Shown here: piece by piece, positions 110 through 61,885 of the stretch
How positions within the stretch are numbered: the first letter of the stretch is position 1
How the letters are laid out: every line of letters begins with the position of its first letter
From: Candidatus Omnitrophota bacterium
GTDB taxonomy: Bacteria > Omnitrophota > Gorgyraeia > Gygaellales > Profunditerraquicolaceae
NCBI GenBank assembly: GCA_026387355.1
Contig: JAPLLW010000007.1
Span: forward strand, 42,198 to 106,197
Length of the DNA stretch: 64,000 nucleotides
Reading direction: 5' to 3'
The notes under the pieces: generated by a model
Seen by the model: only the letters and a program-made list of their open reading frames with translations
Told to the model about the DNA's origin: nothing
Database searches by the model: none
Made by a program: the position numbers and the translations under genes

Positions 110-1507
110 TTAGAATACGACCTTTACATTACCAACAACCTGCATGGCACTGTGTGCATTATCCAGGAAAGCATCGCCTTTCCAGAAAGAACCATAGGTT
201 AAACCAAGTTGAACATCTTCAGTATAGTCATACTTAACTGTTAGGTCTAAAGCGCTACCAAGATTATTCTTGCTACCGTTCATGGCCATTACAGTATTTG
301 TGTATTGATTTGTTAAAGATGAAACTGCTGTGTCTAGCTGGTAGTAACCGTAGTTTGCTAATAAAGTTACATCCTCAAGCGGCTTTATGCTACCTCTTAC
401 ATTACCAACTCTCATGTTACTAAAAGGCAAGATAGCATATGCGATATTGTTTAAATTCTCATCCTGGTACATTGGATCCCAACCACCGCGAGAACCTCTG
501 TTGCCAGATAGCCAGGTATATCCACCACCAATACTAGGTTTCATTTTCAATTTGTTGAAAGTATAGTCACCTAATAATTGCAGAGCAAAAGCACTTACTT
601 CTTTTGGTTCAGAAGCAGCGCCAGTTGTGGTACCAGCGTGATTTGTGGCTCCAAACTGATATGCAGCTTCAGCAGATGCCTTTAAGTTCTGGCCATGGTA
701 GGTTAAAAGAAAACCAGGCGTAGCGACAACTTTATTCATTTTAGTATTTCCAGAGCTAGCTCCAGAGCTAGCATTGTTTGATTTATCATATTTAGCAAAT
801 GCATAAGCCTGTAAATTGACCTTTTTAGTAATATCATAAGAAACATTAACGCCATAAAGATTTTCTCTGGCATCAACAGTTGTAACGGTATTTCTTACTG
901 AAGCGTAGATAGCGTCAATTACTAAAGGATCATAGTTTAAAGTAGCTCTGATAGCATCAAATGCTTTGCTTACAGAAAGATCTTTTGGCAGATTATTATA
1001 ATCAGCAGCACCGTTTGCAAGCTGGCTGCCATTTCCAATAATTAACTTATTTCCGAACATCAATTCTTGGCGACCAATGGTCATGGTCAAAGGTGAATAC
1101 AAGAATTCTTTTAAAGTAATATAAGCTAAGTCTAAATTAATACCAATATTATTTGTGTTATTTGTATTATAGTTATTTTGATCAGTACCATTAACCTGAC
1201 CTGAAGTGTTTCCCCATCCTCTTTCCTGAAGTAATCTCACGGTTGCAGATACATTGTCAGTTAAGTCAGCGTCAACTCTTAAGCGGACCTGGTCAGCAAA
1301 AAGCCTTTGGTGGCTTCCATTAATGTCTTTAGGTTGAGGTTCGCTTGAACCACTTGGATAACCATACCCAAGATCAAAACCATCTCTTATGATTCCTATA
1401 GCATTGATATCACCAGATACCTTGATATTTTGCACTCCTGCGTAGGCAGCAAATGATGTGCTGACTACAAAAGCAAGCGCTAATACTAAAATTAAGCGTT
1501 TACTCAT
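110..1507 (-). CDS. Outer-membrane beta-barrel protein (putative porin)
   Basis: N-terminal signal peptide (MSKRLILVLALAFVVSTSFAAYA). Alternating amphipathic beta-strand composition rich in G/Y/N/T. C-terminal aromatic residue (…NVKVVF), typical of OMP barrels. SD AAGGAGGAG upstream. Confidence 0.7.
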   Translation of the reverse strand: MSKRLILVLALAFVVSTSFAAYAGVQNIKVSGDINAIGIIRDGFDLGYGYPSGSSEPQPKDINGSHQRLFADQVRLRVDADLTDNVSATVRLLQERGWGNTSGQVNGTDQNNYNTNNTNNIGINLDLAYITLKEFLYSPLTMTIGRQELMFGNKLIIGNGSQLANGAADYNNLPKDLSVSKAFDAIRATLNYDPLVIDAIYASVRNTVTTVDARENLYGVNVSYDITKKVNLQAYAFAKYDKSNNASSGASSGNTKMNKVVATPGFLLTYHGQNLKASAEAAYQFGATNHAGTTTGAASEPKEVSAFALQLLGDYTFNKLKMKPSIGGGYTWLSGNRGSRGGWDPMYQDENLNNIAYAILPFSNMRVGNVRGSIKPLEDVTLLANYGYYQLDTAVSSLTNQYTNTVMAMNGSKNNLGSALDLTVKYDYTEDVQLGLTYGSFWKGDAFLDNAHSAMQVVGNVKVVF

Positions 1508-1613
1508 TTTGATTCTCCTCCTTTGTTATGATGCCTTGTTATTGTTATATAAACTAGGCTTATAAGTGGTTATCTGCCTAGACGATAGCTATGCTTACCT
1601 AGCACTCTTTACT

Positions 1614-1642
1614 TTTTTATCATACAAGCCTTAATTTGTCAA
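1614..1642 (-). promoter_or_regulatory. Candidate sigma70-type promoter for the OMP gene
   Basis: Minus strand reads TTGACA, then a 17-nt spacer, then TAAAAA. Lies about 110 nt upstream of the start codon. The -10 is weak. Confidence 0.3.
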
Positions 1643-1662
1643 GTAAATTTATTAAAATTTCT

Positions 1663-2112
1663 CTATTTGAGTAAGCTTTTGGATCTCTTGTTAAAACCCT
1701 GTGATTTCGGCCCCATAGAGATACTGATCAGCGAGTTAGACCCTTTTGGCGCAATATTGATAATACAGCTCTCTGTCTCACGCTCAAAGTTCATCACACA
1801 GTCCCCGTATTCCATGACGTTTAGGAGATTCCAGTTGTACATGGGCATCTGTTCTTTATAGAAGTTAATTACTCGTTCAATTGAGGCAGGGCCCTGGTAT
1901 CTTAAGACACATGCCCTTAGCCCGGTGCTTTCAAAAGAATAAGAATTCTGTTGCAGTAATCTAAATCCAGCCGGAACAGGGATATCCTGGAACTTTAGGG
2001 CTACCTGTGATTTCAATGGTTCTAGGCTATTTTTATTAAACATGGAAGTGCAACCAGTAAGCGTTAATACTAAAGATGCTAAGATAGCTAGATACAACTT
2101 TTTTCTTTTCAT
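1663..2112 (-). CDS. Small lipoprotein, function unknown
   Basis: Signal peptide with lipobox (LTLTGC). No recognisable family. Confidence 0.55.
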   Translation of the reverse strand: MKRKKLYLAILASLVLTLTGCTSMFNKNSLEPLKSQVALKFQDIPVPAGFRLLQQNSYSFESTGLRACVLRYQGPASIERVINFYKEQMPMYNWNLLNVMEYGDCVMNFERETESCIINIAPKGSNSLISISMGPKSQGFNKRSKSLLK

Positions 2113-2122
2113 TGCACCCTCC

Positions 2123-2770
2123 TTATTTCTTTAAAAAATCAGTAACATCCTGGTAAATCTTATCCAGCTCGACTTCAGTTAAGCCAGCCTGAATTCCTAT
2201 AGCAGCCAGTTCTTGTGGCGAAATAATATCTTCTGGGGAATGGCTATCATTGTTCAGGATTAATTTTGCCCCAAACTTGCGAGCTTGTTTAATTACATGA
2301 TTATTGGTATTTGAATGCCCGCGACGGCTAGTAACCTCTAGGAAAACCCCTCTTTTTTTAGCCAGTAGCGTATCCTCGTCGGAGATTTTGCCAGGGTGAG
2401 CCAAAATATCAATATCTGCTTCTAAGGCCAGTCTATTAGTATCTTTTACTACCGGTTCAGTAGTAGTCTCACCGTGAGCAATAATAACTTTTATCCCCTC
2501 TTTTCTGGCAAATTTAGCCAAAGGTTTAAATTGAGCAGGTGGTAGATGTGTTAACTCAATGCCGGGATAAACTTTGATCAGAGAATCTTTAGGCCACTTG
2601 CGGTAGAATTCAACAATTGCTTTAGTCAAGGGTTTAATATTGCTGTAATCCGCATGGTCAGTAATTGCGATTGCCTTATACCCTTTGGCAAGGTAGCGTA
2701 CTGCTACTTCCGAAGGAAGCAGATCCCCGTCACTTAAAAATGTGTGTGCATGTAAATTGTAATTGTACAT
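2123..2770 (-). CDS. PHP-domain metal-dependent phosphoesterase
   Basis: N-terminal HAHT…SDG and ITDHAD motifs, characteristic of PHP (histidinol-phosphatase-like) domains. Confidence 0.7.
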   Translation of the reverse strand: MYNYNLHAHTFLSDGDLLPSEVAVRYLAKGYKAIAITDHADYSNIKPLTKAIVEFYRKWPKDSLIKVYPGIELTHLPPAQFKPLAKFARKEGIKVIIAHGETTTEPVVKDTNRLALEADIDILAHPGKISDEDTLLAKKRGVFLEVTSRRGHSNTNNHVIKQARKFGAKLILNNDSHSPEDIISPQELAAIGIQAGLTEVELDKIYQDVTDFLKK

Positions 2771-2781
2771 TTTAAAATAAG

Positions 2782-2855
2782 TGCGCCTGGCAGGAATCGA
2801 ACCTGCCGCACACAGTTTAGGAAACTGTTGCTCTATCCTTATGAGCTACAGGCGC
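2782..2855 (-). tRNA. tRNA-Arg (anticodon CCT)
   Basis: Hand-folded cloverleaf. Acceptor GCGCCTG/CAGGCGC. Anticodon stem ACAGT/ACTGT with loop TTCCTAA. T-arm GCAGG-TTCGATT-CCTGC. Discriminator A. CCA not encoded. Confidence 0.85.
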
Positions 2856-2859
2856 AAGA

Positions 2860-3393
2860 TTATTCTCCTTCAAACTTAATCAAAGAGTGAACTGGATAAT
2901 CCTTTAATTTATCTCTGCCCTTAAGGTCAACTAGCTCAATGACAAAGCCGATTCCCTGAATCTTGCCTTTTAAATTATTTACTAATTCAATTGTAGCTTT
3001 TACTGTCCCGCCCGTAGCCAGAAGGTCGTCGATAATTAAAACCTTTTCTCCCGGGTTAATGGCGTCCTTGTGGATCTCCAAAGTATCTGTGCCATATTCT
3101 AATGCGTAGGTTGTGGAGATGGATTTAAAGGGGAGTTTTCCTTTCTTGCGCACAGGGACAAATCCTGCGTTTATTTTATAGGCAATTGCTGCACCAAAGA
3201 TAAATCCGCGCGCCTCCACCCCTACTACCTTATCAATTTTTTTACCTTTAAATTTAGCTGTTAGCATATCAACGCTAGCCTTAAATGCTTTTTTATCTTG
3301 TATCAGTGTGGTTACGTCTCTGAATAATATTCCTGGCTTTGGGAAATCCGGAATATTACGCACATATTTCTCTAAGCAAAGTTTAGGGGTCAT
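2860..3393 (-). CDS. apt: Adenine phosphoribosyltransferase
   Basis: PRTase motif VLIIDDLLATGGT and the APRT-like N-terminus (FPKPGILFRD). Confidence 0.9.
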   Translation of the reverse strand: MTPKLCLEKYVRNIPDFPKPGILFRDVTTLIQDKKAFKASVDMLTAKFKGKKIDKVVGVEARGFIFGAAIAYKINAGFVPVRKKGKLPFKSISTTYALEYGTDTLEIHKDAINPGEKVLIIDDLLATGGTVKATIELVNNLKGKIQGIGFVIELVDLKGRDKLKDYPVHSLIKFEGE

Positions 3394-4205
3394 AGCTCTC
3401 CTTTTGTGCCTTCTACAAATTTTCTAATTTTCTTGAGGGCTGCCTCTTCGATCTGCCTGATTCTTTCTCTTGAGACGCCGAGCTTCTTGGCAACTTCGGC
3501 AAGTGTGTGTGTTTTAGTATCTGCCAAGCCAAAGCGCATATCCAGGATCTCTCGCTCTCTATCATTCATAATTTCAAGCAGGTTCTCCACTCTTTCTTTA
3601 TCCAAAAGATGCTCGATTCCGCTATCCGGTTGAGCAGAGTTCTCATCTTCGACTAAGTCTGAAATCTTCCCCTCGCTATCTTCACCTATTGGCGCATCAA
3701 GGGAAGAGGTTGTGGTAGTCATCCAGAAATTAATCTGCTCAATTTTATCTTTCGGGATCTTGAGTTTTTTGGCAATATCCATGTCAGACGGGATACGTTT
3801 TAATTTCTGGGCCATGCGCTCTTTTGTTTTGCGCCACTTGGTGATTATATCGTTCATGTACACAGGCACGCGGATCATTTTACCCTGTTCGGATATTGAG
3901 CGGGTAATCGCCTGCTTAATCCACCAAGCCCCATAAGTTGAGAAACGGAATCCTTTTCTATGGTCAAACTTATCTACAGCCTTCATTAATCCAAGATTCC
4001 CCTCTTCGATTAAATCAAGAAAGGGGATCCCTAGGCGCATGTATCGCTTGGCGATATTAATTACTAGGCGCAGGTTTGATTGGATCATTTGTTTACGCGC
4101 TTGTTCATCGCCTTTTTTGATGCGCTTACTTAAAGAAACTTCTTCCGCCGGAGTTAATAGCGGGATGTTTCTAATTTCTTTAAGGTATGTCCTTAATGCT
4201 TCCAT
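3390..4205 (-). CDS. RNA polymerase sigma factor, sigma-70 family (short alternative sigma)
   Basis: Region 2 (LDLIEEGNLGLMKAVDKFD…FSTYGAWWIKQAI) and region 4 HTH (TLAEVAKKLGVSRERIRQIE). At 271 aa it is too short for a primary sigma. Confidence 0.85.
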   Translation of the reverse strand: MEALRTYLKEIRNIPLLTPAEEVSLSKRIKKGDEQARKQMIQSNLRLVINIAKRYMRLGIPFLDLIEEGNLGLMKAVDKFDHRKGFRFSTYGAWWIKQAITRSISEQGKMIRVPVYMNDIITKWRKTKERMAQKLKRIPSDMDIAKKLKIPKDKIEQINFWMTTTTSSLDAPIGEDSEGKISDLVEDENSAQPDSGIEHLLDKERVENLLEIMNDREREILDMRFGLADTKTHTLAEVAKKLGVSRERIRQIEEAALKKIRKFVEGTKGEL

Positions 4206-4214
4206 GGTTTTCCT

Positions 4215-6953
4215 TTATTTCTTTTTGTCTTTCAGCGCTGCCTGAGCTGCTGCTAAATTCGCAATTGGAACGCGAAATGGCGAACAGCTTACGTAATTCA
4301 TTCCAACCTTATGGCAAAATTCCACTGATTTAGGTTCTCCACCGTGTTCACCGCAGATACCAACTTCTAATTTCTTATTGGTTTTTCTGCCGCGTTCAAT
4401 ACCGATTTGGATTAACTGGCCGATACCTTCCTGATCGATGCTTTGAAATGGATCTTCGGGGAGAATCCCTTTTTTAATATACTCAGGTAAAAAACCTCCG
4501 ATATCATCCCTGGAGAATCCAAAGCCCATCTGGGTCATGTCATTGGTGCCGAATGAGAAGAACTGCGCTACTGTTGCTAGTTTGTCTGCAACCAGTGCTG
4601 CGCGCGGGATCTCAATCATTGTTCCGTACATGGTTTTAATGTTCTTTAGATTGTATTTCTTTAAAACCTCTGCATAAACCTGTTTATAAATAACTAGTTG
4701 ATCCTCAAGTTCTTTTACATCGCAGACAACCGGGACCATGATTTCCGGGTATGGTTTTTTACCATCCTTGATCAGTTCAGCTGCTGCTTCAAATATAGCG
4801 CGAATCTGCATAGCGCTTACCTCAGGATAAGTTACCCCTAAGCGTACGCCGCGGTGGCCCATCATCGGGTTTGATTCGTGCAGTGCTTCAGCTCTCCTAG
4901 TTAGCTCCTCCATGTTAATATTAAGATCTTTGGCCAACTCTTCAAGCTTTGCTTTCTCGCGCGGAACAAATTCATGTAGAGGCGGATCAAGTAGGCGGAT
5001 AACTACAGGAAATCCGTCCATTGCTTCAAGTGTCCCTTTAATGTCTTTTTTGACATACGGGAAGAGCTGATTGATTGCGTTGGTTCTTTCTTCGAGCGTG
5101 TTTGAGACAATCATTTTGCGTAAAAGAAACAAAGCTTCATCAGAACCTTTTCCGTAGAACATATGTTCTGTTCTAAATAAACCAATACCTTCGGCTCCGA
5201 ATTGACGCGCCTTAGCAGCATCTTCCGGGGTGTCAGCATTAGTACGAATCCCTAGTTTCTTGATTGTACTGCAAATCTTCAAGAATCCAGAAAGCATCAT
5301 ATTTTCTTCGGAAGCATCCATCATAGGAAGCTTACCTATATATACATTGCCCTTAGTCCCGTTTAAGGTAACCCACTCCCCTTCTTTAAGGGTTTTACCA
5401 TCCACGTTGATCTTCTTGGCCCCTAAGTCAACATGCAAGGAACTGCATCCTACAATACAGCATTTACCCCAACCACGGGCTACCAGGGCTGCGTGTGAGG
5501 TCATACCGCCTCTGGCAGTCAAAATTGCCTGGGCAACGCGCATACCTTCAACATCTTCAGGGTTCGTCTCTTCGCGCACCAGTATTACCTGTTTTCCTTC
5601 TTTTGCCCATGCTACGGCATCAGCAGCTGAGAAAACAATCTGTCCACATGCACCACCCGGACCAGCAGGTAAACCCTTTACAAATGGTTTTTGCGTCAAT
5701 TCAACCTTAGGGTCAATGATCGGATGCAATAATTCATCTAACTGCGCAGGTGTTACGCGCATTACAGCTTCCTCTTTTTTAATTAATTTCTCTTTAATCA
5801 TATCCATGGCCATGCGCACTGCTGCCGGACCATTGCGTTTTCCTACGCGGCACTGCAACATAAAGAGCCTACCTTTTTCAATGGTAAACTCAATATCCTG
5901 CATATCGCGGTAGTGATTCTCTAGGCGAAGTTGTATTGCAAAAAGCTCTTTATAAATCTGAGGCATTGCTTTCTCAAGCGTTACCAGATCTTTATTATGC
6001 GTTGATTGCGAGAAGGTATTAATCGGTGCCGGGGTGCGGATACCTGCAACTACATCTTCACCCTGGGCGTTGATTAAATATTCTCCGTAGAAATGCGGGT
6101 CGCCGTTTCCGGGGTTTCTGGTGAAGGCAACTCCAGTAGCTGAAGCATTACCCATATTTCCAAAGACCATCGTCTGCACATTTACAGCTGTTCCCCAGGC
6201 ATCAGGGATCCCTTCGATGCGGCGATAGCTTATCGCGCGCTTTCCGTTCCAAGAGGAAAATACTGCGCCAATTCCTCCCCAAAGTTGTTGTATGGGTTCA
6301 TCGGGAAATTCTTTACCTAAAACTTCCTTAATCCGTGTTTTAAAACTTTTACATAATTCTTTTAAATCAGCAGCGGTTAAATCCGTATCTAGCTTGCTAC
6401 CTCTTTTTTGTTTTGCTTCATCCATGATGCGTTCAAGCTGCTTACGGATACCCATATCATCCTTAGCTTCAATTCCCGCAGCTTTCTCCATAACTACATC
6501 AGAGAACATCATAATCAACCTGCGGTAGGCATCATAAACAAAACGCTCATCGCCATTAGCTTGTTTGATTAATCCGGGGATAGTTTTTTCGGTTAAGCCG
6601 ACATTTAAAACAGTCTCCATCATACCGGGCATAGATTTACGCGCGCCGGAACGAACAGAGACTAAGAGTGGATTATTTGCGTCACCGAATTTTCTATCCA
6701 TGAGCTTCTCAACTTGAGCCAATGCTTTATTTACCTGTGTTTTAAGTTCTTTAGGATAAGACCGTTTGTTAGCATAATAATAGACACATACATCAGTGGT
6801 TAAAGTAAATCCCGGAGGAACAGGGAGTTTTAGATTTTTATGCCCTGCCATCTCGGCTAGATTTGCGCCTTTACCTCCTAAGAGGTTCTTCATACTTTCG
6901 TTTCCATCAGCTTTCCCTCCGCCGAAGGAGTAAACGTACTTTTTGTTACCCAT
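4215..6953 (-). CDS. ppdK: Pyruvate, phosphate dikinase
   Basis: Full-length (912 aa) match to PPDK architecture. N-terminal GGKGANLAEM, catalytic His domain (GGMTSHAALVARGWG) and PEP-utilising C-terminal TIM-barrel domain. Confidence 0.95.
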   Translation of the reverse strand: MGNKKYVYSFGGGKADGNESMKNLLGGKGANLAEMAGHKNLKLPVPPGFTLTTDVCVYYYANKRSYPKELKTQVNKALAQVEKLMDRKFGDANNPLLVSVRSGARKSMPGMMETVLNVGLTEKTIPGLIKQANGDERFVYDAYRRLIMMFSDVVMEKAAGIEAKDDMGIRKQLERIMDEAKQKRGSKLDTDLTAADLKELCKSFKTRIKEVLGKEFPDEPIQQLWGGIGAVFSSWNGKRAISYRRIEGIPDAWGTAVNVQTMVFGNMGNASATGVAFTRNPGNGDPHFYGEYLINAQGEDVVAGIRTPAPINTFSQSTHNKDLVTLEKAMPQIYKELFAIQLRLENHYRDMQDIEFTIEKGRLFMLQCRVGKRNGPAAVRMAMDMIKEKLIKKEEAVMRVTPAQLDELLHPIIDPKVELTQKPFVKGLPAGPGGACGQIVFSAADAVAWAKEGKQVILVREETNPEDVEGMRVAQAILTARGGMTSHAALVARGWGKCCIVGCSSLHVDLGAKKINVDGKTLKEGEWVTLNGTKGNVYIGKLPMMDASEENMMLSGFLKICSTIKKLGIRTNADTPEDAAKARQFGAEGIGLFRTEHMFYGKGSDEALFLLRKMIVSNTLEERTNAINQLFPYVKKDIKGTLEAMDGFPVVIRLLDPPLHEFVPREKAKLEELAKDLNINMEELTRRAEALHESNPMMGHRGVRLGVTYPEVSAMQIRAIFEAAAELIKDGKKPYPEIMVPVVCDVKELEDQLVIYKQVYAEVLKKYNLKNIKTMYGTMIEIPRAALVADKLATVAQFFSFGTNDMTQMGFGFSRDDIGGFLPEYIKKGILPEDPFQSIDQEGIGQLIQIGIERGRKTNKKLEVGICGEHGGEPKSVEFCHKVGMNYVSCSPFRVPIANLAAAQAALKDKKK

Positions 6954-25690: not shown

Positions 25691-27232
25691 TTATTCCCAC
25701 TCTATAGTTGCTGGAGGCTTAGAAGATATGTCGTAAACAACGCGATTAACGCCGCTTACCTCATTAATAATACGATTTGAAATCTTCTCTAAAATTTCAT
25801 AAGGTATTTTAGCCCAATCCGCAGTCATTCCGTCCATACTTGTTACGCAGCGTAAGGCCACAACATTTTCGTAGGTGCGTTCATCACCCATTATCCCCAC
25901 GCTCTTTATAGGTAATAATATTGCAAAAGACTGCCAGATCTGATCATAAAGTCCAGCTGTTCTTATCTCATCGATTACCCTTCTATCGACCTCTCTTAAT
26001 ATATTCAATCTTTCTTCAGTTACCTCTCCTATAATTCTTATGGCAAGTCCCGGTCCAGGAAATGGCTGTCTTTGAATTATGGTATCCGGAAGGCCTAATT
26101 CTCTGCCAATTGCGCGCACTTCGTCTTTGAATATCTCTCGAAGCGGTTCAATTAGCTTAAGCTTCATGTGCGCAGGTAGGCCCCCAACATTGTGGTGGCT
26201 TTTAATCTTACGGCTGGGTGCGCCAGTTGGAGATATAGATTCAATTACATCAGGGTAAAGTGTTCCCTGCACTAAGAATTTCACCCCTTTTACTTTTTCC
26301 GCTTCTTCTTCAAAAGTTTTGATAAACTCATCTCCGATGATTTTACGTTTTTCTTCAGGATCGGTTATTCCTTTAAGCCGAGCAAGGAATTTTTTGCTCC
26401 TGTCTACGTAACAAAGATTTAAGTGATAGACATCGCGAAACACTTTTTTTACCTGTTCAGGTTCGTCTTTTCTTAATAAACCGTTATTGATAAAAATGCA
26501 ACGGGAATTTCTTCCGATGGCTTTATGTAAAAGCAGGGCTGCTACAGATGAGTCAACTCCTCCGCTTAAGCCTAGCACGACCTTAGCGCTTCCGGCAGTC
26601 TTTTTAATATTCTCAAGTGCCTCTTTGATGAATGCCTGCATAGTCCAACGCGCAAGGCAACCACATATTTTAAATAAAAAGTTACTTAAGATCTGGTTTC
26701 CTTTTTCTGTATGCGTTACTTCAGGGTGAAATTGCACGCCGAAGATCTTTCGTTTGCAGTTACTGATTGCTGCAATAGGCGTATTCATAGTATGCGCGCT
26801 AATGTGAAATCCGGAAGGTACCTTAGTGACAAAATCTCCGTGACTTGCCCAACAGGTAAAGTTTCCAGGCATATGGCTAAAGAGGTCGCGATTATCGTCA
26901 ATAAATAATTCTACTTTGCCGTATTCGCGATCTTTTGTATGCTTAACCTTACCCTCTAGCATTTCGGAGATAACCTGCATACCGTAGCAGATTCCAAGAA
27001 TCGGAATCCCCAGTTTAAATATGCCCTTATCCGGTTGCGGCCCCTTTTTATCTACAATGGAAGCAGGGCCTCCGGATAGAATTAACCCCTTAGGCGACAT
27101 CCCTGCTATCTCTTTAGCTGGGGTATTGTAAGGTATAATCCTAGAGAATACTTTATTCTCCCTAACTCTGCGTGCAATTAGCTGTGTGTATTGCGATCCA
27201 AAATCTAAAATCAGTATTGTTTGTCTGGTCAT
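25691..27232 (-). CDS. guaA: GMP synthase (glutamine-hydrolysing)
   Basis: GATase triad region (GICYGMQ), PP-loop SGGVDSSV, and the C-terminal dimerisation domain ending …PATIEWE. Confidence 0.95.
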
Positions 27233-28389
27233 TTTCCCATCCCCACTCTTTGCCCAACTTGAAATATCTTGCCTTCTGTTTGTATAGATGGCGCTATAAT
27301 TATCTCTACGTCATGCATCTCCTTGAGACTAGGGGCACCAAGTGAACCCATGGAAGTTTTTAATGCGCCGATTAAATTTTGTGAACCATCGTCAACCTTT
27401 GCCGGTCCAAAAAGAATTTCCTTTAATGAACCGGTAGTACCGACATTAATGCGTGTTCCTCGAGGCAAATTAACATGAGAAGTTGCCATTCCCCAATGGT
27501 ATCCTTTACCCGGGGCTTCTTTTGCTCGGGCAAAGCTTGATCCGATCATTACGGCATCAGCTCCGCAGGCAAATGCCCTGCAGATATCTCCGCCGCGATT
27601 CATTCCGCCATCTGTAATTACAGTTATATATTTGCCTGTTCTTTTTAAATAAAAATCACGCGCACCAGCAGCATCTACAGTTGCGGTAACTTGGGGTACG
27701 CCTATCCCTAATACCCCTCTTGTTGTACATGCTGCTCCAGGACCTATCCCTATTAATAGGCCGCATGCCCCGGTATCCATAAGCTCTAAGGTTGTTTCGT
27801 AAGTTACGCAGTTTCCTAAGATAACCGGAATTTTTGTGGCTTTGCAGAATTTATAAAGGTCTAATGTTTTATATTCTTTTGAAATATGTTTGGTAGTAGT
27901 AACCGTAGATTGTACAACAAAAATGTCTGCGCCGGCAGCAATAGCCAGCTTTGAGAACTTATCTGCGTTTGCCGGTATGCAGCTGACTACCGCGGTCCCC
28001 TTTCTCTTTTTGATTTCGGAGATTCTTTTTGAGATTAATTTTTCTTTAATTGGGGTAGTGTAAATTGATTGAATTAATTCTGTAGCTTTTTGGGGTGAGG
28101 CCTGGGAGATCTCTTGTAATACTGATGTTGGGTTTTCGTAACGCGTCTGCACGCCGTCTAGATTTAAAACCGCGATTCCGCCTAAATTGGACATTTCAAC
28201 CGCAAAATTTACATCAACTACTCCGTCCATAGCAGCAGCAAGTATAGGGACTTTGAATTTTCTACCGGCTAATTCGAAACTGGTATCTGTTTCGTTAGGG
28301 TTTACTGTCTGTGCGCCTGGAACAAGCGCTATCTCATCAAAGCCGTAACATCTGCGAGCACGCCTACCTATACCTATCCACTCTGCCAT
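27229..28389 (-). CDS. guaB: IMP dehydrogenase/GMP reductase-family protein lacking the CBS subdomain (putative GuaB)
   Basis: Catalytic loop [11 protein letters not shown] in a TIM barrel. 386 aa with no CBS pair. 4-nt overlap with guaA. Confidence 0.65.
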
Positions 28390-28480
28390 TTTATAAGTCT
28401 CCTATTCTCATAAGTTGTTGTTTGACAATAAGTTAAGATATTCTAGCACTTTTTGAAGATTTGTTTAGAAGGAATGTTAA

Positions 28481-28509
28481 ATTTTACCCTAGTTAGGGGA
28501 TTTTGTCAA
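28481..28509 (-). promoter_or_regulatory. sigma70-type promoter for guaB-guaA
   Basis: Minus strand TTGACA, 17 nt, TAAAAT: a perfect -35 and a near-consensus -10. Predicts an ~85-nt leader ending in the AGGAGA SD 8 nt before the ATG. Confidence 0.6.
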
Positions 28510-28520
28510 TATTTATTTTT

Positions 28521-28625
28521 TAGCGTCTGGCTTGTCTTGTTTCTCGCGGGGACGCTTGTTTTGCCCCAGCGTGGCAAAACTGCGCTCGGGCCGGCTGGCG
28601 TCGCTCTCTGACATAAAAGTGACGG
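28521..28625 (-). ncRNA. GC-rich structured element, copy 1 (E1), homologous to 29283-29392
   Basis: Stands out as GC-rich against AT-rich flanks. 8-bp hairpin GTTTTGCC[CCAGCGT]GGCAAAAC at 28558-28580. On the minus strand the loop reads ACGCTGG. About 75% identity to E2 over ~110 nt, with compensatory stem changes. Strand assignment is arbitrary. Confidence 0.35.
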
Positions 28626-28707
28626 AATTGTGCGTGCACATCTGACTTACAACTCATATTTCTCAATTCTTATTCCTCCTGTTACCGTTTTTAAGATAGC
28701 GTGCCAT

Positions 28708-29040
28708 TTATTTTTTTGTCTTTGAAATTAGTTTTGAAATAAGCCAACCGATACCATACCATTGCAATCCGCCAAGAATTGAAGCTAAAGCAGGAATAAG
28801 GATGAACGGAGAAACCTTATAAATGTTATCAATGAAATCGGATAAAGGCATAATGACAAAAGTAGCAGGAATTTCCATTCCTAAAATCGCTACTAAACCA
28901 AATCCCCTGCTGGTATTCAAGCTGTCAAGATAAGCGATAGTTATTACTATTGCCGCATTAACTATGGCAAGAAGCAAACCTAACTTACTAATCTTTGCCC
29001 AGTTCACTCTTGCCTCCCTCTCCAAAGCTTCCAGTTTCAT
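28708..29040 (-). CDS. Small membrane protein (3 predicted TM helices), function unknown
   Basis: 110 aa. Native AT-rich codon usage. Charged N-terminus followed by three hydrophobic segments. No match to CrcB or SMR signatures. Confidence 0.55.
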   Translation of the reverse strand: MKLEALEREARVNWAKISKLGLLLAIVNAAIVITIAYLDSLNTSRGFGLVAILGMEIPATFVIMPLSDFIDNIYKVSPFILIPALASILGGLQWYGIGWLISKLISKTKK

Positions 29041-29204
29041 AAAAGGTTGATTAAGTATATTTTACCAAGGATTTCAGGAAATGGTATCAATTTTGTGAGA
29101 GGGTTTGTATAGACGAATGTATGCCCGTTCATTGCCGACACCGCCCTCACTCGAAATCAAACCAAGTCATCCGCTAGGTTATCTCTATCAATATTGATAA
29201 AGCT

Positions 29205-29425
29205 GCTATAGTCCTGACTTGGCTGTGGTTGAGCGGGGCGTCCGAGGATGCCGAGCGGGCACGGTTCGCCTTCTACAAGCGAAGCCAGCGAGAGCGAGGC
29301 ACCGCAGGTCGAGTGCAGTTGCGGCACGCTGGGCCGCAACAAACGTACCCGCGAAAACACAGGCAAGGCAGGACCTACTCGAAAATAATAAGGGCGAGAG
29401 TATTGAATACCCTCGCCCTTATATT
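29205..29425 (+). ncRNA. Candidate structured RNA (E2) ending at the groEL bidirectional terminator
   Basis: Noncoding and visibly GC-rich (the six-frame ORFs here are Arg/Ala-rich noise). Long-range helix 29211-29230 pairs with 29355-29374 (17 of 20 positions). Internal 8-bp hairpin GTTGCGGC[ACGCTGG]GCCGCAAC at 29318-29340. 3' end at the terminator hairpin. Confidence 0.4.
29391..29422. terminator. Bidirectional rho-independent terminator (groEL, minus strand; E2 RNA, plus strand)
   Basis: GGGCGAG…CTCGCCC stem. U-tract on the minus strand (TTATTATTTTCG) just 3' of the groEL stop, and on the plus strand (TTATATTGTT). Confidence 0.8.
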
Positions 29426-29448
29426 GTTAAATATTTGATTCTATGGGT

Positions 29449-31104
29449 TTAGTACATTCCTCCGCCCATACCGCCCATTCCACCCATTCCTCCTGGTGGC
29501 ATTCCGCCGGGCATCTTATCATCTTTTTCAGGCTTATCAGCAATCAAGGCCTCGGTAGTTAAAAGCAATGATGCTATACTCGCAGCATTTTGTAACGCTG
29601 AACGCGTAACTTTCTTTGGATCGATTACGCCTGCCTCGATCATATCCACATAATCATCCTGAGAAACATCATAACCTATGTTTATTTTTTCTTGTTTTAC
29701 TCTTTGAACGACAACTGAGCCTTCCAGTCCTGCATTTTGAACAATCTGTCTGATTGGCTCTTCCAATGCACGTTTGACTATATCAACTCCGATCTTTTCA
29801 TCCCCTTCTAACTTTAATTTGTCTAATGCAGGGATGCAGCGGATTAAAGCCACGCCACCGCCAGGGATAATCCCCTCTTCGACTGCTGCACGGGTAGCAT
29901 GTAAGGCATCTTCTACGCGAGCTTTTTTCTCTTTCATTTCGCTCTCTGTAGCAGCGCCAACATTAATTACTGCAACTCCGCCTGCAAGTTTCGCTAGACG
30001 TTCCTGCAGTTTCTCTTTGTCGTAATCGGAATCAGTATCATCGATCTGTTTTTTAATTTGGGCAATACGTGCATTAACCTGTGCTTGTTTTCCCGCACCT
30101 TCAACGATAGTTGTATTTTCTTTATCGATTTTTACTTTCTTAGCGCGGCCAAGATCATCTAGGTCAACATTCTCTAGCTTTATGCCTAAATCTTCAGTTA
30201 GAGCTTTTCCGCCTGTTAAGATTGCGATATCTTCAAGCATTGCTTTGCGTCTATCGCCGTATCCGGGTGCTTTTACTGCGCAGGAAACAAACGTCCCTTT
30301 AAGCTTGTTTACAACTAAAGTTGCCAATGCTTCGCCGTCAACCTCTTCAGCAAGAATCAAAAGCGGTTTTCCTGTGCGGGCAATTTTTTCTAACAAAGGA
30401 AGCAGGTCTTTTAAAGATGAGATCTTTTTCTCATGGATTAAGATATAAGCATCCTCTAAGACGCATTCCATTCTTTCAGCATCTGTAACAAAATAAGGCG
30501 ATAGATAACCTTGATCAAACTGCATACCTTCTACTAATTCTAAGGTGGTAGCAGTTGTTTTAGCTTCCTCTACGGTAATTACGCCGTCTTTGCCAACCTT
30601 TTCCATTGCTTCAGCGATTAAGTCCCCAATGGCAGTATCGCCATTAGCAGCAATAGAAGCAACTTGGGCTACTTCTTTTTTTTCTTTTACGTTGATTGGT
30701 TTGGTTAATTTAGCTAATTCTTCTACGGTTCTTTCTACCGCTTTCTCAATTCCGCGCTTTAAGGCCATGGGATTTGCTCCGGCAGTAACATTCTTTAAGC
30801 CTTCGCGATAGATTGCTTCGGCTAAGACTGTGGCTGTAGTGGTGCCATCACCTGCGATATCGGATGTTTTCTCGGCAACTTCTTTAACCATCTGAGCGCC
30901 CATATTCTCATATGGACATTCCAAATCGATTTCTTTGGCCACCGTTACTCCGTCTTTGGTGATAGTAGGCGAACCGAATTTCTTATCAATTACTACATTG
31001 CGTCCTTTTGGGCCGAGTGTTACTTTAACTGCGCGAGCTAATTGCTCTACGCCACTGAGTAATTTTCTACGCGCTTCATCTTGGTACAATAACTGCTTAC
31101 TCAT
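29449..31104 (-). CDS. groL: Chaperonin GroEL
   Basis: Full-length. C-terminal GGM repeat tail ([15 protein letters not shown]). Confidence 0.97.
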
Positions 31105-43223: not shown

Positions 43224-44126
43224 TTAGAAACCTCCGCCGCCTCCGCCGCCACCGCCGCCTCCGCCGCCAAATCCGCCGCCACCACCCCCAAAACTGCCAC
43301 CCCCAAATCCACCTGAACTTCCTCCGGAATAGTTTTTACCACTACCTAAAACCATTAAACCTAAAAGAATCCATTTCCAAAAGCTTTTTCTAGTTGTTTT
43401 AGGAGTGCTTCTCCATATGAAGTATCTTAATATAATTGCTCCAAGATAACCAATTAAAGGGAAAAGCCCCATAATTGGTGATGCCTGGGCAAACCCGGCA
43501 GCAAAGAGTAAGGTTGCCGGTAATCCAATAAAAATAGGCCAGGGTATATTCCATAAGAAAAAGAAACCTAAAACAAAAATTGCTCCCGTAAATTTACTAA
43601 AGTTATTACCGAACTTTGCCAGGCTAGTATTGCTATTTTCGCTTGGCGAAGATTTATCTCCAGAGAGCCTTTCGGCAACTTTTGAAACTCCTATATAGAG
43701 GCCTTGCGAATAGTCGCCGCTTTTAAAATACGGGACCATATAATTGCGGCCAATTTCTCCGCATAAGCCATCAGGTAAAACCCCCTCTACGCCGTATCCT
43801 GTTTCAATACGCCAGCGTCTTTCTTTCACGGCCAAAAGGATTAATACTCCGTTATCCTTTCCTTTCTTTCCGGGCTTCCATTTATCAAAGAGCATGCGGG
43901 CGTAATCTGTTTCGCTATACGGTGCAATCGAACTTACCGTAACAACCGCAATTTCCGATGTAGTCTTTTGTTCTAAATCCTGTATAAGAGCGTTTATCTT
44001 TTCCTTGTATTTCTGGGTAATTACTCCGGCAAAATCATTAACCCATCCGGAAGGCTCAGGTATATTTTGCGCAAAAGCTAGTAAAGGTAAAAACAAAAAT
44101 AAGGTAGCTACGCAAAATCTACGCAT
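43224..44126 (-). CDS. TPM-domain protein with TM segment and Gly-rich C-terminal tail
   Basis: Signal peptide, TPM phosphatase-like domain, TM region, then a (G)n tail encoded by a GCC/GGC simple repeat (43227-43300). Confidence 0.75.
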   Translation of the reverse strand: MRRFCVATLFLFLPLLAFAQNIPEPSGWVNDFAGVITQKYKEKINALIQDLEQKTTSEIAVVTVSSIAPYSETDYARMLFDKWKPGKKGKDNGVLILLAVKERRWRIETGYGVEGVLPDGLCGEIGRNYMVPYFKSGDYSQGLYIGVSKVAERLSGDKSSPSENSNTSLAKFGNNFSKFTGAIFVLGFFFLWNIPWPIFIGLPATLLFAAGFAQASPIMGLFPLIGYLGAIILRYFIWRSTPKTTRKSFWKWILLGLMVLGSGKNYSGGSSGGFGGGSFGGGGGGFGGGGGGGGGGGGGF

Positions 44127-52550: not shown

Positions 52551-52621
52551 AGCGAGCGATCGGAATCGAACCGACATATATAGCTTGGAAGGCTATTGTT
52601 CTACCATTGAACTACGCTCGC
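52551..52621 (-). tRNA. tRNA-Gly (anticodon TCC)
   Basis: Acceptor GCGAGCG/CGCTCGC. Anticodon stem ATAGC/GCTAT, loop CTTCCAA. T-loop TTCGATT. Discriminator U. Confidence 0.85.
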
Positions 52622-52725
52622 AAATCTCCGCTTGCATTGAAATGTGTTTCTCGATTCGCTTCATTTGTTCGAAGTCGCTCGGTTGAATGGTTTACCGCGA
52701 GCGAGCAACGTAGTTGCGAGTCGAG

Positions 52726-52811
52726 TGGTGGGCAGGAAAGGATTCGAACCTTTGAAGCACATGTGCAACAGATTTACAGTCTGTCCCCTTTGGCCACTTG
52801 GGTACCTGCCC
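52726..52811 (-). tRNA. tRNA-Tyr (anticodon GTA), CCA encoded
   Basis: Class II tRNA with a long variable arm. Anticodon loop CTGTAAA. Close to E. coli tRNA-Tyr in the D, anticodon and T arms. Ends …CCTGCCCACCA. Confidence 0.9.
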
Positions 52812-52857
52812 AAATTATCAAAAAAATAATCAAAGCTATCAGCTATGAGCTAAATCA

Positions 52858-52930
52858 AGCCGGCGAGAGGAATCGAACCCCCGACCCGCTGTTTACAAAA
52901 CAGCTGCTCTACCAACTGAGCTACGCCGGC
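52858..52930 (-). tRNA. tRNA-Thr (anticodon TGT)
   Basis: Acceptor GCCGGCG/CGCCGGC. Anticodon stem GCTGT/ACAGC, loop TTTGTAA. T-loop TTCGATT. Confidence 0.85.
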
Positions 52931-61808: not shown

Positions 61809-61885
61809 TGGTGGCGGCGACTGGATTTAAACCAGTGACCTGTCGGGTATGAGCCGATTGCTCTATCAGGCTGAGCTACGCCGCC
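61809..61885 (-). tRNA. tRNA-Met (CAT), elongator type (a lysidine-modified Ile2 identity cannot be excluded)
   Basis: Acceptor GGCGGCG/CGCCGCC with G1-C72, so not an initiator. Anticodon loop CTCATAC. CCA encoded. Unusual D-loop with no GG and T-loop TTTAAAT (U56), consistent with an A19-U56 covariation. Confidence 0.7.

Follow-up and report, generated by a model that had tools for sequence, protein, structure and literature searches.

What are the two GC-rich elements that face each other between groEL and guaB3 in an Omnitrophota genome, and how did they come to lie there? The DNA examined is a 64,000-nucleotide (nt) stretch of contig JAPLLW010000007.1 from Candidatus Omnitrophota bacterium (the window, to which all coordinates given without a locus number refer). 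The minus strand carries every gene at the locus, namely groES, groEL (29449-31104), a 110-aa open reading frame (ORF; 28708-29040), guaB3 (27229-28389) and guaA; compared with NCBI proteins of metagenome-assembled genomes (MAGs), the product of the 110-aa ORF is 99% and GuaB3 100% identical. An initial annotation, made from the sequence alone, had pointed out two homologous structured segments in this region, E1 read on the minus strand and E2 on the plus strand. These are two copies of E, a previously undescribed GC-rich repeat family of Omnitrophota with a unit of ~175 nt. We favour, with moderate confidence, the view that E is a non-autonomous mobile repeat which depends on a folded single strand, its doublets being the ends of units able to hold cargo.

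The homology of the two segments was borne out: E1 (minus strand) and E2 (plus strand) share 77% identity over 84 nt (blastn E = 2e-9), and a MAFFT alignment also brings them together. Both form GC-rich islands in AT-rich surroundings, as had been noted, with a GC fraction of 0.57-0.67 compared to 0.40 for the window as a whole. The other GC islands of the window are short coding stretches only, including a Gly-rich protein tail; the only other strong island, at 43224-43340 on the minus strand (up to 75% GC), encodes the long Gly-rich C-terminal tail of a 300-aa protein. A 24-base pattern common to E1 and E2 was found at these two sites and nowhere else in the window, with 0 sites expected (100 shuffles). 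The central hairpin that had drawn attention to the pair is exactly as first described, with an identical loop and three stem pairs changed on both sides:

29318..29340, plus strand: hairpin of E2 in the initial annotation, here called P7, GUUGCGGC-ACGCUGG-GCCGCAAC (DNA: GTTGCGGC-ACGCTGG-GCCGCAAC).
28558..28580, minus strand: P7 hairpin of E1, GUUUUGCC-ACGCUGG-GGCAAAAC (DNA: GTTTTGCC-ACGCTGG-GGCAAAAC).

Further homologues were sought in public collections (one-genome-per-species genome contigs, metagenome contigs and viral contigs) with the pattern ACGCTGG-N7-CAA-N-CGT-N-CCCGCGA, in which the 5' arm of the hairpin was purposely left free. The genome contigs gave 37 loci, of which 34 were true homologues from 18 species-level MAGs, labelled Omnitrophota/Omnitrophica, 'uncultured Planctomycetales' (five) or 'bacterium' (one); the three others, from unrelated phyla and without the hairpin, were chance matches. 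Another 71 loci came from the metagenome contigs. The free 5' arm complemented the 3' arm in 34/34 true genome-contig matches, in many different stems (e.g. GUUUUGCC/GGCAAAAC, GUUGCGCC/GGCGCAAC, GCCCCGCC/GGCGGGGC and GGUGCGC/GCGCACC). Homology reached ~115 nt upstream of the segment first annotated, indicating that the unit is ~175 nt long and not ~110 nt as had been proposed. A covariance model (R1), seeded with the structure derived on 19 full copies, yielded 99 matches in 98 sources; 83 of these matches are distinct. In all, ~100 copies were recovered, almost all from Omnitrophota, and their divergence is compensatory. Both elements of the window belong to the family: E2 matched R1 over its full length (133 bits), the 3' part of E1 matched it with 51 bits, and the 5' part of E1 matched positions 3-57 of the E hidden Markov model (HMM).

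The view that no known RNA family is involved also held. A search of the whole window against Rfam 15 at the gathering threshold returned only five tRNAs, three of which are clustered (52551-52930, 2782-2855, 61812-61885). At E <= 10, positions 28380-29460 gave chance-level matches only, all from the groEL terminator or the AT-rich flanks. Nothing relevant to E was found in the literature on Omnitrophota repeats or RNA motifs. Resemblances to the hammerhead core, group II domain V, a K-turn, SRP, 6S and ykkC were set aside, since either the bases that agree fall in covarying helices or the motif is only partly present.

One strand of E folds into a rod (P1, P2, P3) ending in a three-way junction, with seven helices in total; the hairpin first noticed is only one of them, P7. 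The terminal stem P1 (UUAGCGGGU/ACCCGCUAA) is followed by an asymmetric internal loop GG/ACAGG, then by P2 and a tandem G.A loop (C-GA-G/C-GA-G), and P3 (GCGGGG/CCCCGC) leads into the junction. Arm 1 consists of P4, a conserved purine-rich internal loop (GAGCGGGCA.GGU / GAGAGCGA.G) and a variable hairpin, P5. Arm 2 consists of P6 and P7; within P6, the Y:R pair between GAG-Y-G and CAA-R-CG covaries perfectly. In the R1 alignment 89.3% of cells were paired, compared to 35-46% when the partners were slid, and 41/49 pairs were changed on both sides, compared to 16-22. The covariation score was 0.288 against ~0.05 for the control, a value reached by 0/500 shuffles. Selection on structure, first argued from three compensatory pairs, is therefore seen in 41 of 49 pairs and in ~83 distinct copies. 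P7 itself was paired in 98.5% of cells, with 5/8 pairs covarying. In copies found without the search pattern P3 also covaried (GCAGGA/UCCUGC, GCGCGG/CCGCGC) and the P7 loop varied (ACGGUGG, ACGCCGG), so that ascertainment accounts in part for the constant loop and P3 of the other copies. Within P2, G.U pairs (~30) far outnumbered A.C pairs (~5), indicating that the functional strand is the one read here, as RNA or single-stranded DNA (ssDNA). Variability in P1 is greatest in the outermost pairs and conservation greatest in the inner ones, and three permissive sites of E accommodate additional hairpins in some copies.

In the window the two copies form a doublet within a single block, bounded by the groEL terminator and the guaB3 promoter:

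28519..29384, no strand assigned: whole inserted block (~870 bp) made of E2, spacer, and E1 with its ORF insert; absent in close relatives.
29388..29422, minus strand: groEL intrinsic terminator, 16-bp stem and T-tract, left boundary of the block; an equivalent terminator is found in the empty sites of relatives.
29207..29384, plus strand: E2, complete ~175-nt copy with P1-P7 and the three-way junction (R1, 133.2 bits, E = 1e-32, model positions 1-177).
29177..29206, no strand assigned: AT-rich spacer at the doublet centre, with the 5' ends of E1 and E2 facing each other (~28 nt apart); holds the palindrome ATCAATATTGAT.
29121..29176, minus strand: 5' part of E1, with the 5' strands of P1, P2, P3 and P4, then GAACGGGCA (nhmmer, E HMM 3-57, E = 1.4e-5).
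28627..29120, minus strand: insert in E1, 494 nt, AT-rich, carrying the 110-aa ORF, at E HMM position ~57-61, the break between the two nhmmer segments.
28708..29040, minus strand: 110-aa ORF, predicted small membrane protein, no Pfam or PADLOC family.
28519..28626, minus strand: 3' part of E1, with a P5 remnant, P6, P7 and the 3' strands of P4, P3, P2 and P1 (nhmmer, E HMM 61-172, E = 4e-23).
28481..28509, minus strand: guaB3 promoter, TTGACA-17-TAAAAT, 11/12 matches, right boundary of the block; kept in relatives without the block.

E2 was recovered by nhmmer at 29215-29380, and the fold of 29200-29435 gave z = -6.1; its P1 is re-registered (GUCCUG/CAGGAC), yet still closed. The local covariance-model match to the 3' region of E1 (51 bits) covered 28551-28655. 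Since nhmmer found E1 as two segments (HMM 3-57 and 61-172), the 494 nt with the ORF are an insertion inside E1. The 5' part of E1 also aligned to full copies and pairs with the 3' part in P1-P4. As this part lies beyond the ORF, the ORF is inside E1 and not between two separate elements; the inverted arrangement first reported stands, whereas the idea that the pair flanks the ORF does not. When the two halves of E1 were joined, they folded into the canonical P1-P4, with P4 = GUCGGC/GCCGGC, and with the insert left in, 33 of the first 65 nt still paired with the last 125 nt. The same site holds 35-46-nt hairpin inserts in other copies (loci L017, L036, L041, L037 and L057; L numbers denote individual loci), and two copies (L072 and L116) break at the insertion point of E1. 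The reading of E1 as a 5'-truncated copy, a hint of retroposition, was ruled out by the position of its 5' part past the ORF insert. A strong Shine-Dalgarno-like AGGAGG (28667-28680, minus strand) stands 8 nt ahead of a TTG at 28666, which starts a 48-aa Arg-rich frame (28520-28666) through the 3' part of E1; this frame is not kept in E2 and is probably fortuitous.

The presence or absence of the block was checked in related genomes, and it was absent at the orthologous site of close relatives. In four of them (L120, L121, L124 and L125; GuaB3 89-91% identical) the gene order is uvrB-coaX-groES-groEL-guaB3-guaA-dnaE. Their groEL-guaB3 spacer measures 199-221 nt, compared to 1060 nt in the window, and consists of the terminator hairpin, 24-42 nt, the TTGACA-17-TAAAAT promoter and the 5' untranslated region. 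The covariance model found no E in this spacer of the four relatives. The ~870 nt that the window has in addition start right behind the T-tract of the terminator (29388-29422) and stop immediately short of the -35 box (28509). Because the relatives keep groEL, terminator, promoter and guaB3 in this order without E, the ~870-bp block as a whole represents an insertion; we infer that it was gained here and not lost in the relatives. In another relative (L122, positions 1343-4500, and L123) the same spacer is occupied by four other genes (HMGL-like, aldolase, PCC and a 251-aa ORF of no known family), a different insertion without E, so that insertions seem to recur in the gap from the groEL terminator to the guaB3 promoter. 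Elsewhere another empty site was observed: in L090 a sense copy of E begins 12 nt past a stop codon and ends 15 nt ahead of the next start codon, while the orthologues of the two genes in L075 overlap (ATGA) with no E between them.

Solo copies of E occupy short gaps between housekeeping genes of the same orientation (purD, uvrC/murJ, recA, ligA, rpsI, crcB and others), nine of them sense and eight antisense to the surrounding genes. Upstream of purD, the copy has sense orientation in L030, L031 and L034 but antisense orientation in L020. The number of copies per genome ranges from 1 to at least 11, the latter in the MAG CAIVOB01, where the copies are similar to each other and many lie at contig ends. 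Without gaps, E1 is 85% identical to a CAIVOB01 copy (L046), compared to 59% to E2 (77% with gaps). We detected no target-site duplication: in 63 copies, the longest substring common to both flanks had a mean length of 5.25, compared to 5.22 for mismatched flanks. Mini-derivatives (72-75 nt) are reduced to P1, the GG/ACAGG loop, P2, the GA loop and a short hairpin cap:

L083:1464-1535 (plus strand), L117:68-142 (plus strand) and L083:~1281-1330: mini-E derivatives.

The partner of E in a doublet is often a second undescribed structured repeat, F, of ~215-250 nt, which was found at 21 loci on the same contigs as E and is absent from the window. Examples are:

L034:2491-2713 (plus strand), L058:1282-1537 (plus strand), L107:1043-1268 (minus strand) and L113:937-1185 (plus strand): copies of F.

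F begins with AAAUGAAUCUGGCGG.UUUUCGAGCGAAU... and ends with ...GAGCGAGAAAA.CGACAGAUUCAUUU; its fold has z = -8.25, it has no Rfam match, and the E/F doublet at L113:700-1250 likewise gave no match to Rfam 15 at E <= 1. E and F have a basal motif in common, UUUC-GA-GCG / CGC-GA-GAAA. With HMMs of both families, neighbouring elements formed 24 head-to-head pairs and 0 tail-to-tail pairs, a few 'tandem' calls being pieces of one element or F arms. The gap between the heads was 7-38 nt in 14 pairs and 130-2665 nt in the other 10; F stands head-to-head with E at 7-27 nt. Several loci show nesting, the arms of F directly enclosing a complete E. The spread doublets contain AT-rich accessory genes. 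At L063:7434-9176, a head-to-head E and F enclose a complete restriction endonuclease of the DpnI family (Pfam DpnI 2.6e-80, plus DpnI_C) together with a 235-aa ORFan; no methylase was noticed near this DpnI gene. The cargo also includes ORFan membrane proteins and weak matches to ParE-like and PycTM-like proteins, one of each, and a DUF3800 gene adjoins one copy. In the cases examined, cargo genes point to the sense copy at their 3' end.

A third, MITE-like repeat (MITE, miniature inverted-repeat transposable element), R2, has ~60-bp terminal inverted repeats (AAGCTTAAGTTTTGCGGAGGGGTTCGTGAGCGTGCATTAGAAAATTTTTGGCAAAAGTGCGC) and is often found immediately 5' of E in different MAGs. It occurs upstream of E at L018 (about 2290-2480, minus strand) and also in L012, L027, L031, L037, L053, L056, L057, L060, L063, L076, L085, L099, L110 and L111; it was not found in the window.

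Of the three explanations offered in the initial annotation, the best fit is a REP/MITE-like element that brought in, or targets, the small gene. Its REP/MITE-like character is supported by the absence of the block in relatives, the at least 11 similar copies in one MAG, the mini-derivatives and the nesting. The strand-specific structure, the lack of target duplication, the insertion into tiny spacers by terminators or between cistrons, the basal-rod derivatives, the nesting and the presence/absence pattern together suggest that E moves. We propose that an enzyme encoded elsewhere in the genome would recognise a folded single strand, either ssDNA or RNA, and not inverted repeats in duplex form. 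Given the head-to-head rule, the 3' ends of a doublet, which face outward, may act as the two ends of a larger, cargo-holding unit, and doublets would move as such units. The block of the window may be one of them, with the ORF lodged in a permissive loop of E1. Several observations weigh against this proposal. The block could have been lost in the relatives instead of gained here. No transposase, reverse transcriptase or recombinase/integrase was seen beside the ~100 copies, in ~870 kb of loci, nor was any autonomous element with E ends, and the viral contigs gave no match to the search pattern. The loops and junction strands are strongly conserved, beyond what hairpin formation alone needs. 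Finally, syntenic copies across species (beside purD and in uvrC-murJ) differ by many compensatory changes. Around the same copies, no RAYT (Y1 transposase) gene and no recurrent neighbouring enzyme gene were found, all recurrent clusters being housekeeping genes.

The conserved junction strands and the compensatory differences between syntenic copies make functional RNA the main rival to mobility, one that we take seriously while judging it rather unlikely. E and F would then be non-coding RNA genes kept for a host function and spread by duplication or horizontal exchange, for instance as RNAs that bind proteins or act in trans, or as RNA elements by which neighbouring transcripts are stabilised, processed or insulated, and they might be domesticated. 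The deep covariation and the one-strand preference of G.U over A.C are expected under such a reading, as is the conservation of junction and loop sequence outside the search pattern (GAGCGGGCA.GG, GAGAGCGA), and peripheral expansion hairpins are typical of functional RNAs. The groEL terminator hairpin, read on the plus strand, comes right after E2 and could end an E2 transcript, the E of L090 must be co-transcribed within its operon, and the cargo genes examined run into the sense copy. However, no consensus promoter was detected upstream of E2, and a consensus scan of the doublet centres found none there, whether outward or mutual; spacers of 7-27 nt are in any case too short for a promoter. 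Among the solo copies, one in two is antisense to the operon around it. The variable copy number, the burst of copies in one MAG, the mini-derivatives, the nesting and the presence/absence pattern are traits of mobile elements. The free-standing small RNA family that had also been suggested fits poorly.

An extension of the mobility proposal, to which we give only a modest chance, is that E and F are the structured ends of a cassette-capturing mobile system. An enzyme would recognise a folded single strand at each of its outward-facing ends, and the spaces between the 5' ends, as well as permissive loops within the elements, would accept accessory or defence genes (DpnI, DUF3800, small membrane proteins). 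If true, this would be an integron- or intron-like gene shuttle working without a known recombinase, or through a self-processing RNA.

A DDE-type MITE or composite transposon of the classical kind, with P1 as terminal inverted repeat and the covariation reflecting co-evolving transposase-binding ends, is an improbable explanation of the block. The ends TTAGCGGGT...ACCCGCTAA do form a perfect 9-bp inverted repeat, deletion derivatives retain the ends, and the cargo doublets resemble mobile insertion cassettes. However, none of the 63 copies has a target-site duplication, and P1 is more variable at its outer than at its inner pairs, the reverse of terminal repeats that contain the cleavage site. 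The covariation of P4-P7 and their conserved loops would not be needed by a transposase that recognises duplex DNA, and the G.U bias is confined to one strand. The pairs are exclusively head-to-head, although the logic of terminal repeats permits any orientation, and no transposase was seen.

A cis-regulatory leader (riboswitch or attenuator) for the adjacent genes, here guaB3/guaA or the membrane ORF, is very improbable. A purine theme is conceivable, with E1 upstream of guaB3/guaA and other copies just upstream of purD, and GAGCGGGG and GAGCGGGC could pair alternatively with CCCCGC. The guaB3 promoter lies downstream of E1, so that E1 is not in the guaB3 mRNA, and the relatives run the same promoter and gene without E. 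Neighbouring genes are functionally unrelated and the orientation is mixed (nine sense and eight antisense); the purD copy is inverted in L020, and E2 faces the 3' end of groEL. A purine-gene riboswitch was thus ruled out by promoter position, empty sites and mixed orientation, and the cis-regulatory RNA considered at the outset is disfavoured. The least credible reading takes the conserved segments for small basic peptides, of 42 aa at 28513-28641 (minus strand) and 46 aa at 29248-29388 (plus strand), in the same frame with an aligned stop, a common ..SES.A....S..TLG.NKR.RE.. and four synonymous differences, and it was rejected because the frame is not conserved in the homologues: fewer than 40 codons are open around it in 41/71 distinct copies, a stop often stands directly ahead of 'ERG..' without a start codon, 1-nt indels and 35-60-nt hairpin inserts occur inside the region, amino-acid changes coincide with covarying stem pairs, and neither a Pfam match nor a properly spaced Shine-Dalgarno was found. 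Each of these last three readings, DDE-type MITE, leader and peptide, thus fails a defining test.

The mobile repeat that we favour would belong among the structured extragenic mobile repeats. Its mode of action would be closest to those of REP/REPIN-RAYT, of MITEs and mobile insertion cassettes and, as regards the folded strand and small cassettes, of integron attC sites, and E is a member of none of these. Like REP, BIME and REPIN elements, which are mobilised in trans by RAYT (an IS200/IS605-like Y1 HUH enzyme), as we propose for E, it is GC-rich, multicopy and extragenic, lies in short intergenic or intercistronic spacers in either orientation, often forms inverted doublets without target-site duplication, and keeps structure over duplex sequence. 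However, REP is a simple hairpin of 20-40 nt, whereas E is a multibranched structure of ~175 nt with seven covarying helices and conserved loops, and a REPIN joins two copies of the same unit into one long hairpin, whereas E pairs with the dissimilar F or with a divergent E. MITEs and mobile insertion cassettes (e.g. the IS231-derived MIC231) are, like E, non-coding, multicopy and shorter than 300 nt, with inverted termini and deletion derivatives, and their doublets may enclose passenger genes without a transposase. E has such termini (TTAGCGGGT...ACCCGCTAA), which differ in sequence from copy to copy but stay paired, as the strands of an RNA helix do. It differs by the lack of target-site duplication in the 63 copies, by strand-specific covariation well past the termini and by the strict head-to-head rule.

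The folded strand of attC resembles that of E in having a basal helix, an unpaired spacer, a second bulged helix and a variable terminal structure; in both, structure is kept more than sequence, and small promoter-poor accessory ORFs are associated. However, attC sites measure 57-141 nt and form arrays in direct orientation next to intI/attI, whereas E is dispersed singly or as inverted doublets among housekeeping genes, and no integrase was found adjoining its copies. The R'/R'' core of attC (GTTRRRY/RYYYAAC) is unmatched in E (TTAGCGG/CCGCTAA), whose ends CCGCTAA(C) and (G)TTAGCGG agree at 5/7 positions at best. With the IS200/IS605-derived PATEs and the omega-RNA ends of TnpB/IscB elements, E has in common single-strand-specific structured ends, the absence of target-site duplication, a non-autonomous nature and a structured RNA at the element end followed by a variable flank. 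Both end hairpins of IS200/IS605 are on the same (top) strand, whereas the structured strands of E/F doublets are opposite; no tnpA, tnpB or iscB was found adjacent to E, nor any Rfam match to the HEARO or IS605-orfB families. Group I and II mobile introns, like E1, accept hairpins or whole ORFs in peripheral loops while long-range core pairing is kept. Unlike them, E is intergenic and far smaller; neither an intron core nor splice-site features can be recognised in it, and both reverse transcriptase and homing endonuclease are absent.

Homologues of the 110-aa ORF (60-81% identity) were found in other Omnitrophota in different contexts, and none of those in L001-L011 has E or F beside it. The membrane ORF was therefore rejected as a travelling companion of E. 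Beside one homologue, on its 3' side (L005:4530-4690), two tRNA-5'-end-like fragments (GCTGGCGTAGCTCAGTTGG) ~105 nt apart adjoin an rve-family integrase gene and look like an integration scar.

Omnitrophota are abundant, uncultured and poorly annotated. E, F and R2 account for GC-rich islands in their AT-rich intergenic DNA, and such repeats break assemblies, as attested by the many copies at contig ends in one MAG. E unites the population behaviour of a selfish repeat with a covariation-supported fold of riboswitch or ribozyme grade, an unusual combination. In practice, it provides a covariance model for annotation and a testable case of structure-dependent mobility without target duplication, with a modest chance of a new cassette-shuttling system. 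E also marks variable sites that lodge accessory genes, including a restriction enzyme; if its ends do mobilise this cargo, genes would flow through a major candidate phylum by a new route.

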